Made by a program: the position numbers. A stretch of DNA of 64,000 bases from a virus. Lineage: Duplodnaviria > Heunggongvirae > Uroviricota > Caudoviricetes. Below are positions 30,001 through 33,000 of this stretch, piece after piece. The DNA lies in the IMG/VR virus record IMGVR_UViG_2537562172_000006. The stretch is one strand, 5' to 3'. How positions within the stretch are numbered: the first letter of the stretch is position 1; each line of letters opens with the position of its first letter.

Positions 30001-33000
30001 CGCTCAGAGCTGGCGTATGTTCCCGGCCTACTGATTCACACAGGTAATCAACGAATCCTGAAACCAGTTTTCGTTCGCGAGGCGTGATCGCCCCTCCGAC
30101 CGGAGTCCAGTAATCGAATCCGAGTTGCAAAAGTTTGAAAAAACGCTTATGGAATGCGTAGTTACGAACGCGCTTAAAATCAGCGTGTATCCACTCGCCT
30201 ATTTTGATTTGATGCAGAAAATCGCAACTCTCCGGCGTCGCCGGGAGAAGTAAACCAGAAGAAGTTTGTTTGACCAGTTGTATATGCGCCATTGTTATCT
30301 CCAATGGCGCTGTAGGTTGCCAGTTGTTCAGGCTGGCTTACGAATTATAACTCATTCCCGAACCACCTTGAAACCGAGCCTTTCCAGGTATTCAATGAAT
30401 GCCTCGATAGATAAAATCACATGATCATCAGGAATTAACGTTGTGTAGACAACTTTCCCATTCTCAACGCGCACAGCATAGAGGCCATTTTCACTAAAAA
30501 TTTCACGCAATTCTTCGATTTTCATCTTCAGAATCCTTCCAGATAAATAGCTCTCCCCTTCTCAGGGTCCATCCCTCTTATCCCTGCGCGCTACTTAAGA
30601 GCCTCGATTCTAGCCGTGAAGACATACCGATCAACAGCAATAAGCCATCTGAATAACAAAATTAGCCACCCACACCAGTACAGGCAGACGGAAAAAACTC
30701 ACTGAAAAAAACAAAAAACCCGCCGAAGCGAGTTTAGTGCGGGTGCGTTGAGGATGCCTGACACATCAGAGGTGGCGAGGGATTTCTCCCCCGCCGGGTC
30801 TCTTACTCCTCAGGTTCGTAAGCTGTGAAGACAGCGACCTCCGTCTGGCCGGTTCGGATTCGTACCTCGCAGAGGTCTTTCCTCGTTACCAGTACCGTCA
30901 CTATGACGGTTAAACAGATGACGATCAGGGCGATTAACATCGCCTTTTGCTGCTTCATAGCCTGCTTCTCCTTGCCTTTCGGCACGTAAGAGGCTAACCT
31001 ACATTTGTGAGACATAGATTGGGCCTCAGATTAATGTTAAGCGTCTTGCAGGACGCGTAATGTTAACTGGGGCTTTTCTCTATCTGCCTTTTGGTGTTCA
31101 TGCCCGAGGCAGATAGCCTCAAGCACCCGCAGCAATTCTACTTAACTCTCCTTTTTCCGCAAACCGTTTTTGCTCACCATGATAAGTCGTTATTGTAATT
31201 AATTGACATAACGATTAGTCAAAACTCAATTTTTTGCGCTGGTCTTGCATTTAATATCCAACATTCTTGATGAGTGTGGTGCGCAATCAATAAATTTTGT
31301 AGTTGTGTTTTTTTGGCTTTATAATTTAACTCATTTGTCGTATCAATTATCCAATTCCCTGTCCCCGAAGAAGCCAGTGCCATGAGTTTATTACACTCTG
31401 CATGCATATTAATTATCTCACCAAACATATCTGTTTTTGTTTTTTTATTCACAAAGTTAGTAAAAATACCAGCATGCTTATAAGAATCCATTACAGTATA
31501 ACGGCCATCACCATCTACATCAGAAGGTTTTGACATCCATTTAAAAACATGAAGGAGAAAAATATTGGCCGTCCAAGGAAATTCATCTCCATCAAGAAAC
31601 GTTTCAGTAGTCGCTATACTCAGACTCTCAGTAAGATTAGTCGCCCCAATTAAAACAACCTCAGGCTCGCCATCCTTTCTTTTACCCGCCCCAACAAAAT
31701 TGAACGTACCTGCATAACACTGTCCAAAATAAACAATAGCATTGTTTAAATTAGGTGCTCCTTTTAAAGCCTTGAGAAGTTGATGAGGAGTAATAGGATT
31801 TTTTGCATCCAGTCCTTGTGGGCAACCATGACCAGTAACAAACATTACTATGTTATTGTAGTTATTATCACGCAAGTCATTAAAGAAATCTGCTGATGCT
31901 TTTGACGCATAAGGATACTTCGAGGCTGATGAAAAAAAATCATCAAAATTCCTGTTAGGGCTGTCAATATATATTGATATGTCTCGTGGATTTATACCGG
32001 CCTTCTCAAGACATAGCACGCCAAAAACAATATCCAAAACGTGGCGCGATTCAACTTCTTCTTTAGAACAAGGCAAAAACATAACCCATTTCGTACGCTC
32101 AGACCTAAGGCTCATACATATCCTTATGATTCGAATGTTTTAAGTTAAAATTTTGTTAATATTTAGGAGGCATTGCATTACTGAAAGATGGTGGCTTTGG
32201 TATATCAATAAAGTAAAAAAGCTCATCGATGCTTAAATGTTCAGTAATTTGGGTGGACGTTATTTGCCCTCTTTCATTCAAACCAAATATTTCATCGCCA
32301 GTTTTCAGAAAAAACACCACTTCAAATGTTGTGGTTACTTCATGCGCATAAGATTTGAACAGCATCCACTGCCCGAGATTCACACACTCTTTTACTGAAT
32401 CAGAAGTATCAGGTAACGCTGACGACTGTAGCCCTGTGAATTTCATCATTTATCCTTATGAATCCGCATACGACATTCTAACAACATGGTATTTTTACGA
32501 ACACAAACTGTGTGGGCGAGTTACCGACCACACAGAGAAAATATAACTTTGTGCCTCCGTTTTCGTCAACCCCAGCGGCAAATCGAATACACCACCAGCG
32601 CCACCGCCATTGCGATTCCTACCGTGGTGAATGCCTCAGGCCAGGTCATTGATTCACCTCCTGCGGTGGTTCAGGCAACGCTTCCAGTGATGCTTTCACA
32701 AACCACGCTGCCTGAACTATAACGCCATGAATCCAGCGCAAATCAGCATCGCGATCTTTCTTTTTCATCTTTTCGCCACTTAAAGCCTGGCTTATGTGGC
32801 TGCGCACCAAGTCTTCATGTAACTCCTTCGCATCCTCAACGGTGAAACCACCAGGCAAAAGAGTCGGAGTTACCGGAGAGTTGGTTGACGTTTCCGGGAT
32901 TTCCCGAAAGTTTCCGGCATGAAGCATGGCGGCGCGGCAGGCGTTCCATGAAATTTCCTGAAGGGAACGACGAATCTGTGTGCTGCATATACTCCTCCCT

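Follow-up and report, generated by a model that had tools for sequence, protein, structure and literature searches.

What a protease related to legumain may be doing in a lambdoid prophage, in the company of a single small gene, is the question raised by a two-gene cassette on the minus strand of IMG/VR record IMGVR_UViG_2537562172_000006. The window, that is, the whole 64-kb stretch analysed here, represents a Rac-like lambdoid prophage with recE/recT, ydaT/U/V-type replication genes and RalA, and the cassette encodes a 97-residue protein followed by a 298-residue cysteine protease. An original prediction, made from the sequence alone, had placed the two open reading frames (ORFs) 40 nt apart and had suggested a protease-effector abortive-infection or toxin–antitoxin (TA)-like module of undescribed composition; both ORFs are intact at exactly the predicted coordinates, with the predicted lengths and spacing. 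The earlier interpretation is supported in part, and the pair looks like an undescribed TA-like or phage-defence module. Neither protein has a family in PADLOC-DB 2.0 at E <= 10, in keeping with the suspicion that no known defence-system model matches, and no description of the pair was found in the literature searched, including the DefensePredictor paper and its supplements.

Legumain (MEROPS family C13, PF01650) is a secreted or lysosomal zymogen, and the legumain/GPI8 fold is best known from eukaryotic lysosomes and the secretory pathway. To our knowledge, the caspase/CHAT branch is the only part of clan CD so far known to supply effectors of bacterial immunity.

The protease and its relation to legumain

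Neither window protein matched a Pfam, NCBIfam or PADLOC profile, and the one match among profile collections, in PHROGs, assigns the 97-residue protein to a family of unknown function. A single-sequence search of the PDB with the protease returned chance-level matches only, and every database name attached to the E. coli proteins of the pair reads 'hypothetical protein'. Among the 221 protease homologues found in a large protein database, a few carry precomputed PF01650 matches or the names 'caspase family' or 'Peptidase C13 family'.

The relationship becomes apparent at the level of the family. With a profile built on an alignment of 48 homologues, down to 45% identity, all matches in the PDB (18/18, best E 5.8e-4) are legumains, plant asparaginyl endopeptidases (AEPs) or peptide asparaginyl ligases (PALs), and in these alignments the GHG of the protease sits on the legumain His-Gly and its QC on the legumain Cys. 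Half of the homologues (24/48) match PF01650 weakly, with a best E of 2.8e-6, and the window protein does not match it even at E <= 10. An AlphaFold model of the protease (predicted local distance difference test score, pLDDT, 92.9; predicted template-modelling score, pTM, 0.88) led to the same group of enzymes: the first 38 PDB matches in Foldseek comprise legumain, GPI8/PIGK, AEPs and PALs, with caspases and MALT1 next, and the top match, 4n6o, is the complex of legumain with cystatin E/M. The model shows the alpha/beta/alpha sandwich and central sheet typical of clan CD. In it, strand 88–93 runs into G-H96-G and strand 125–130 into Q-C133, so that the His-Gly and Cys elements follow hydrophobic strands in the same order as in legumain. 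The PDB profile matches, the weak PF01650 matches and the Foldseek result thus uphold the caspase-hemoglobinase fold, closest to that of legumain, which had been proposed from two sequence motifs.

The conservation of the family points to a functional enzyme. Invariant in the 48 homologues are His96, Cys133, Arg24-His25, the G-Q-C-x-A-G motif, D199-x-D201-G202-D203 and Q283-E284-x-W286. A set of 24 more divergent proteases (28–50% identity), drawn from Spirochaetes, Clostridia, Bacteroidota, Cyanobacteria, Melainabacteria, Bdellovibrionota, Myxococcota and Alphaproteobacteria, retains the catalytic dyad together with roughly 25 further positions; the two predicted catalytic residues are therefore both present and invariant in 48 + 24 homologues. 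Since this invariance extends across phyla at such low identity, the protease is predicted to be an active enzyme under purifying selection.

In several respects, the protease departs from legumain. Residues 8–14 form the first core strand of the model, and a signal peptide is accordingly absent, as had been proposed; the enzyme is predicted to be cytoplasmic. It also lacks the C-terminal legumain stabilization and activity modulation (LSAM) prodomain: the C-terminus of the model is a helical hairpin plus one conserved strand, and neither the aligned length nor the TM-score of the model improved when prolegumain replaced mature legumain in the comparison. The protease instead adds a helical hairpin (residues 208–280), a DxDGD loop and a C-terminal QExW motif, and it has a dedicated partner gene.

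The substrate pocket also differs. The comparison used a human legumain sequence whose numbering reproduces the published catalytic residues; the legumain S1 pocket, which confers Asn specificity, consists of Arg44, His45, Glu187, Ser215 and Asp231. The Arg24-His25 pair, which follows strand 1 of the protease, aligns with legumain Arg44-His45 in both the profile and the hhalign alignments, the histidine being replaced by Phe in many lineages. Legumain Asn42 aligns with Glu22 (Glu or Asp in the family), and Glu187 with the invariant Gly131. Ser164 may correspond to Ser215, by eye only, through the resemblance of the protease motif ATNLTES to AANPRES(S) in legumain, and Asp231 has no mapped counterpart, as the hhalign comparison of the family with a single legumain sequence covered no more than the N-terminal block. 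The complete legumain pocket is therefore not found in the protease, its Glu187 position being glycine throughout. The term 'legumain', used in the original prediction, holds as a statement of resemblance and fails as one of strict membership, given the missed Pfam C13 model and the Glu187-to-Gly replacement. It seems most appropriate to assign the protease to a new family of cytoplasmic bacterial enzymes, placed on the C13 side of clan CD.

Two surface elements deserve mention in their own right. Conservation of the protease is lowest in the helical hairpin, which varies in both sequence and length; within it, residues ~225–280 (~31276..31443) carry lineage-specific insertions of up to ~50 residues (in homologues P0017, P0019 and P0022) and constitute a candidate variable recognition surface. 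The D-x-D-G-D(-G) loop, residues 199–204 (31504..31521), resembles DxDxDG calcium-binding loops, and one homologue weakly matches EF-hand_5, which would be compatible with possible metal regulation, as in metacaspases.

Pairing, mobility and the cargo slot

The association of the two genes, predicted from a single locus, extends far beyond E. coli. The protease profile recovered 43 genome loci, 40 of which were scorable, the remaining three having no upstream DNA. An ORF of ~80–135 codons lies directly upstream of the protease gene on the same strand, with spacings from -12 to +98 nt and frequent overlap with the protease start codon, and by iterated hidden Markov model (HMM) searches it is homologous to the 97-residue protein in 36/40 loci, from at least eight phyla or classes. 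Three of the other four loci contain truncated or frameshifted protease genes, and the fourth has a probable divergent partner below the threshold; counting this last, no intact protease gene without a partner was seen among the genome loci recovered. A relative of the protease is encoded on 28 IMG/VR viral contigs, most of which are prophages predicted in isolate genomes, and the partner is present in all 25 of the viral loci that include upstream DNA (25/25). Copies of the cassette with at least 92% DNA identity occur in 12 of 5,426 complete E. coli genomes (14 copies), always with both genes together, and one further E. coli genome has a 75%-identical pair at the same position. The nearest neighbours are heterogeneous in 34 genome loci, with no conserved third gene. 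As judged from gene organization across these genomes, the pair is obligate and translationally linked.

In the window, the cassette occupies a position that other prophages use differently. Its downstream neighbour, read earlier as a hok gene, belongs to a genuine hok/sok locus: a complete sok RNA lies at 30953..31128 (Rfam RF01794, 120 bits), and hokD is annotated in identical copies. A prophage in ETEC4067, which matches 90% of the surrounding 24 kb at 99.9% identity, has, between hokD and an ead/Ea22-like gene, wholly different small genes in place of the cassette. The same slot in the Qin prophage of E. coli K-12 is filled by relB-relE, which lie on the hokD strand with the small gene in front, so that the analogy drawn at the outset with relBE beside hokD was correct, and in other prophages it holds an ORF6N-domain gene. 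The slot beside hokD is a cargo-exchange slot, able to host a proven TA pair. Among the carriers of the cassette are Shiga-toxin (Stx2e) prophages and other toxin-converting ones from pathogenic E. coli.

The pair was found in at least three different prophage positions. One is the nin (early-gene) region of lambdoid phages, beside hok/Mok; another lies between head-morphogenesis genes, with the pair on the opposite strand; and in a Yersinia myovirus-like prophage it is inserted among tail and baseplate genes. Outside phages, a Burkholderia island contains it together with a resolvase and an integrase. In a gut alphaproteobacterium it neighbours a serine recombinase and a type I restriction–modification system, in Pseudomonas fragi PLD and SIR2 genes, and in a Leclercia islet the SymE toxin. 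Other loci adjoin GajA, DpdF, PsyrT, DRT or TOTE genes, and some copies are flanked by housekeeping operons. The two genes constitute an autonomous operon that moves horizontally.

The partner tail and the possible function of the pair

The 97-residue protein, described in the original prediction as a possible sensor, inhibitor or substrate of the protease, matched no known fold, and a single-sequence search identified enterobacterial relatives only. An exhaustive HMM search of 1.84 billion cluster representatives retrieved 286 partner clusters (50% identity) at E <= 1e-3. Among the 150 clusters listed, all are stand-alone proteins of 68–142 residues, except for one outlier of 208 residues, and none is a natural fusion with the protease or with other domains; an alignment-based search of a large protein database, which applies a word prefilter, returned 42 proteins only, also without fusions. 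A ubiquitin-like protein was considered and rejected, the strand order being different from that of a beta-grasp, with no C-terminal Gly-Gly and no fold match.

The C-terminus of the partner, of which residues 91–97 are left unstructured in the model, is the most conserved feature outside the core. The last strand is followed by about eight residues (typically P-x-S-L-S), an Asn and 1–10 variable residues, which usually start with a hydrophobic or small one. Among 151 cluster representatives, 111 have Asn at tail positions 6–11, followed in frequency by Leu (88) and Ser (80) of the same L-S-N motif, with residues foreign to the motif much rarer, and 126 have an Asn anywhere in the tail; where the aligned column lacks it, the residue is mostly Glu or Asp, or the Asn has moved by one or two positions. 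One subclass of partners stops 2–3 residues after the Asn. This pattern makes the tail a plausible docking or cleavage site for the protease and sharpens the idea that the 97-residue protein is an inhibitor or a substrate. A separate observation concerns P0125, a chimeric 126-residue protein of three E. coli loci (L092–L094), in which the first ~31 partner residues are swapped for a DUF7167 N-terminus and the Asn tail is kept; the downstream protease gene is shortened (256 codons) or uncalled, and P0125 appears to be a recombination remnant in the same slot.

The explanation tentatively favoured here is that the pair constitutes a protease-effector TA-like or abortive-infection module, a reading drawn from its context, namely the mobile cargo slot and the neighbouring defence genes. 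The two proteins would be made together and form a complex in which the Asn tail of the partner occupies the active site of the protease as a substrate-like plug, or is clipped there, thereby keeping the enzyme in check. Infection by a phage, for instance, or the loss of the partner or of the element would free the protease to cleave cellular or phage proteins, and the outcome could be growth arrest, abortive infection or addiction to the carrier element. What the analysis shows is the fold, the intact dyad, the pairing, the mobility and the tail motif; the partner–protease interaction, the toxicity, the trigger and the targets of this scheme are what we infer. Conceptual precedents exist: in the staphopain–staphostatin system, a small beta-rich protein of the same operon blocks the cleft of a cysteine protease in a substrate-like manner, and cystatin E/M inserts an Asn into the S1 pocket of legumain. 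The likeness is one of concept only, as the 97-residue protein has no homology to either inhibitor; staphopains, moreover, are secreted clan CA enzymes, with the inhibitor gene downstream.

Like type II TA systems such as relB-relE, the cassette consists of two co-directional genes, the smaller first and the enzyme second, in the same Qin slot and orientation, with a patchy and mobile distribution and frequent start/stop overlap. It differs from them in that the effector is a protease rather than an RNase and the small protein has no known antitoxin fold. The clan CD proteases of bacterial immunity (CHAT or caspase-like, in type III CRISPR and CBASS-like systems, or gasdermin-activating) are likewise cytoplasmic cysteine proteases, possible effectors, found in mobile defence contexts. 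They represent a C14-like branch and occur fused to sensors, signalling enzymes or gasdermins, or are encoded alongside them, whereas the protease of the cassette is C13-like and single-domain, with a protein of ~95 residues as its sole companion; the module resembles the caspase/CHAT effectors in clan only. A polymorphic-toxin/immunity pair was also considered and rejected, as the small gene is upstream and the protease is single-domain, without a trafficking domain.

Several observations weigh against the TA or abortive-infection explanation. The association with defence islands is anecdotal, known from individual loci, and the pair was not found by tblastn in 50,697 isolated phage genomes or 72,556 plasmids. 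Profile and fold searches revealed no DNA-binding domain in the small protein, unlike in classical type II antitoxins. The S1 pocket differs from that of legumain at the Glu187 position, and many lineages with Phe in place of His25 keep the partner Asn, so that Asn specificity is at most putative. A minority of partners (in Melainabacteria/Muribaculaceae, gut Alphaproteobacteria and Myxococcota) lack the Asn or the whole tail, and no change in the protease matching this loss was found when covariation was looked for in divergent homologues. The record of disruption does not settle the matter in favour of a toxin either. In E. coli, the protease gene is disrupted in 4/14 copies (L062, L063 and L061 being those of E. 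coli STEC409, strain 0-4 and CV839-06), by IS1A, by IS1B at another site and by a 1-nt deletion common to two pig isolates, while the small gene is intact in all. Disruption confined to the protease is suggestive of a toxic gene and counter-selection; since three events against none in the partner are not significant with a 3:1 difference in gene length, these disruptions are not evidence of toxicity.

The same tail could have another meaning, namely that the small protein is a dedicated substrate and not an inhibitor, its tail being removed after the Asn to activate it or the Asn being joined to a target amine. This arrangement has a counterpart in GPI8/PIGK and in plant ligases (butelase-1, OaAEP1, VyPAL2), enzymes of the C13 fold that are among the top structural matches, GPI transamidase and PALs being among the closest structures. 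They recognize a small or Asn residue near the C-terminus of a protein and release a short peptide, a layout matched by the conserved L-S-N of the partner and the short, variable and mostly hydrophobic leaving peptide that follows it, which in one subclass is reduced to 2–3 residues. The obligate, translationally coupled pairing would suit an enzyme and its substrate, and some lineages have partners whose C-terminus falls roughly where the Asn would be, as if processing had already taken place. Partners without any tail argue that processing is not essential. Furthermore, there is no conserved acceptor or third gene and the small protein has no recognizable effector fold; GPI8 and the plant asparaginyl ligases are eukaryotic secretory-pathway enzymes with only 12–18% identity to the protease. 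Maturation or conjugation of the partner is considered unlikely, and the ligation variant, in which the enzyme would cleave the partner after the C-terminal Asn and transfer its ~90-residue domain onto an amine of a phage or host target protein, is judged very improbable.

The pair might also serve the phage, the protease cleaving a host defence protein or a protein of a competitor phage (counter-defence or superinfection exclusion) and the small protein acting as a chaperone or specificity factor. The 28 viral contigs with a relative of the protease, the placement of the E. coli cassette in the early-gene (nin) region, its occurrence inside virion-gene clusters and the presence of an Acb1-family anti-CBASS gene (CBASS, cyclic-oligonucleotide-based antiphage signalling system) in the same prophage are in line with such a role. 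Many copies, however, reside outside phages, in chromosomal islets and islands, the isolated phage genomes searched yielded none, and the maintenance of the same pair over distant phyla argues against a host-specific target, all of which makes this explanation quite unlikely. An ordinary cellular regulatory protease with a cognate adaptor or substrate, uninvolved in genetic conflict and hitch-hiking on mobile DNA, would account for the copies located between housekeeping operons and for the anecdotal nature of the defence association; it is rendered improbable by the patchy distribution (12 of the 5,426 complete E. coli genomes), by the exchange of the cassette as cargo in near-identical prophages, by its AT-richness relative to the flanks and by its repeated association with integrases and defence genes. 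That the protease is a decaying pseudo-enzyme without current function, as the IS1 insertions, the frameshift and the chimeric remnant P0125 could be taken to indicate, is barely credible given the intact window copy and the invariance of the dyad and ~25 further positions across phyla.

Should the TA or abortive-infection explanation be true, a protease of the legumain branch would join the effectors of bacterial immunity, with two new protein families spread over many phyla, the partner alone forming the 286 clusters counted above. The legumain/GPI8 fold would then have a widespread cytoplasmic bacterial form with a partner, which bears on the origin of the eukaryotic enzymes. The Asn tail provides a directly testable handle, through cleavage, inhibition or ligation. 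Ligation, if true, would represent a previously unknown form of bacterial protein tagging, and a cytoplasmic, neutral-pH, Asn-specific ligase would be of practical value, ready-made for biotechnology. If the cassette influences how phages compete or how stably prophages persist, this would matter for the dissemination of toxin genes, because Stx2e and other toxin-converting prophages of pathogenic E. coli are among its carriers.

Cassette boundaries and other features of the window

The coordinates of the cassette and of its immediate surroundings are compiled in Table 1.

Table 1. Features of the cassette and of its borders, in window coordinates
Feature	Position	Strand	Remarks
hok/sok type I TA locus	30803..31128	-	Immediately downstream, not part of the cassette; Rfam and hokD annotation in identical copies
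3' untranslated end of the cassette	31147..31218	-	From alignment with a cassette-free prophage
Protease ORF, 298 residues	31219..32115	-	Predicted legumain-like clan CD cysteine peptidase, cytoplasmic
HQECWILN motif	Near the protease C-terminus	-	From alignment
Long helical hairpin, residues 208–280	C-terminal part of the protease	-	From the model
Invariant DxDGD loop, residues 199–203	Within 31504..31521	-	From alignment
Predicted catalytic Cys133 codon	31717..31719	-	Motif IVYFGQCYAG
Predicted catalytic His96 codon	31828..31830	-	Motif IVMFVTGHG
Intergenic spacer, 40 nt	32116..32155	-	Contains the second TCATAAGGATA copy (32119..32129), ribosome-binding context of the protease gene
Small partner ORF, 97 residues	32156..32449	-	Compact alpha/beta domain and flexible C-terminal tail
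Conserved S-F-S-N, ending at Asn91	Asn91 codon 32177..32179	-	Followed by the six-residue tail AMPPKY
First TCATAAGGATA copy	32451..32461	-	Ribosome-binding context of the small gene
TGTTAGAAT, candidate extended -10	32476..32484	-	Read in the sequence; divergent copies lack the element
Stem-loop and U-rich tail, backbone terminator	32499..32535	-	Upstream edge of the cassette

The composition and borders of the cassette agree in most points with what had been read from the sequence. The block has a GC content of 0.33–0.39 against ~0.50–0.53 in the flanks on both sides, confirming an AT-rich insert. Exactly two copies of the 11-mer TCATAAGGATA are present in the 64-kb window, one a short distance 5' of each of the two start codons, and not one match was obtained in any of 100 shuffles, in support of the shared ribosome-binding context noted earlier. 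The hairpin proposed as an upstream terminator (32535..32508, followed by UUUGUGUU) is similarly well founded, with a folding energy of -15 kcal/mol (z = -3.6) that was equalled by 0/200 shuffles; a consensus terminator scan skipped it solely because its loop exceeds the limit of the scan. It is part of the conserved phage backbone, and its pairing is kept in a 75%-identical variant.

The extended -10 element fared less well. Although TGTTAGAAT is present at 32484..32476, it is not conserved upstream of divergent cassette copies in an alignment of the upstream regions, and a scan for promoter-like sites around the cassette was at chance level (three found, 4.7 expected from shuffles), so that the cassette's own promoter stands as a candidate only.

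Cassette-specific sequence begins at ~32495, beyond which the backbone, including the hairpin, is common to copies with 75–92%-identical cassettes; on the hok side, identity with the 99.9%-identical cassette-free prophage resumes at ~31146. With both boundaries mapped, the insert measures ~1.35 kb, roughly 31147..32495. A 27-codon ORF for a hydrophobic peptide (MTWPEAFTTVGIAMAVALVVYSICRWG; 32566..32649, minus strand) ends just before the backbone hairpin; it starts with an ATG that shares nucleotides with the stop codon of an upstream 240-codon ORF (ATGA), and its 3' end is conserved in related prophages.

On the other side of the cassette, just downstream of hok, a strong terminator-like hairpin (30735..30716) ends a stretch with a weak, sub-threshold match to isrK, an Hfq-binding small RNA (sRNA), at 30713..30794 on the minus strand (27 bits against a gathering score of 50). 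Rfam also gave matches exceeding the gathering score for sRNA-Xcc1 at 5468..5552 (plus strand) and for FnrS (frnS) at 48869..48986 (minus strand); FnrS being a chromosomal sRNA gene, the latter region may lie outside the prophage. The RalA sRNA, which is the antitoxin of the RalR toxin, was identified at 44394..44572 (minus strand, 215 bits) and marks another TA locus of the same Rac-like prophage.

A 478-codon ORF at 20187..21623 (minus strand), adjoining the terminase genes, is labelled anti-CBASS Acb1-family in near-identical prophages. Two ORFs encoding 160 and 241 residues (27258..28476, minus strand) occupy the Stx position, downstream of a DUF1133 (Q-antiterminator-like) gene, in an AT-rich region (GC 0.30–0.38). 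The annotation of a 99.9%-identical prophage names them as the binding subunit of a subtilase-family AB5 toxin and as a scabin-related ADP-ribosyltransferase, and the prophage of the window may be toxin-converting, of an unusual type.

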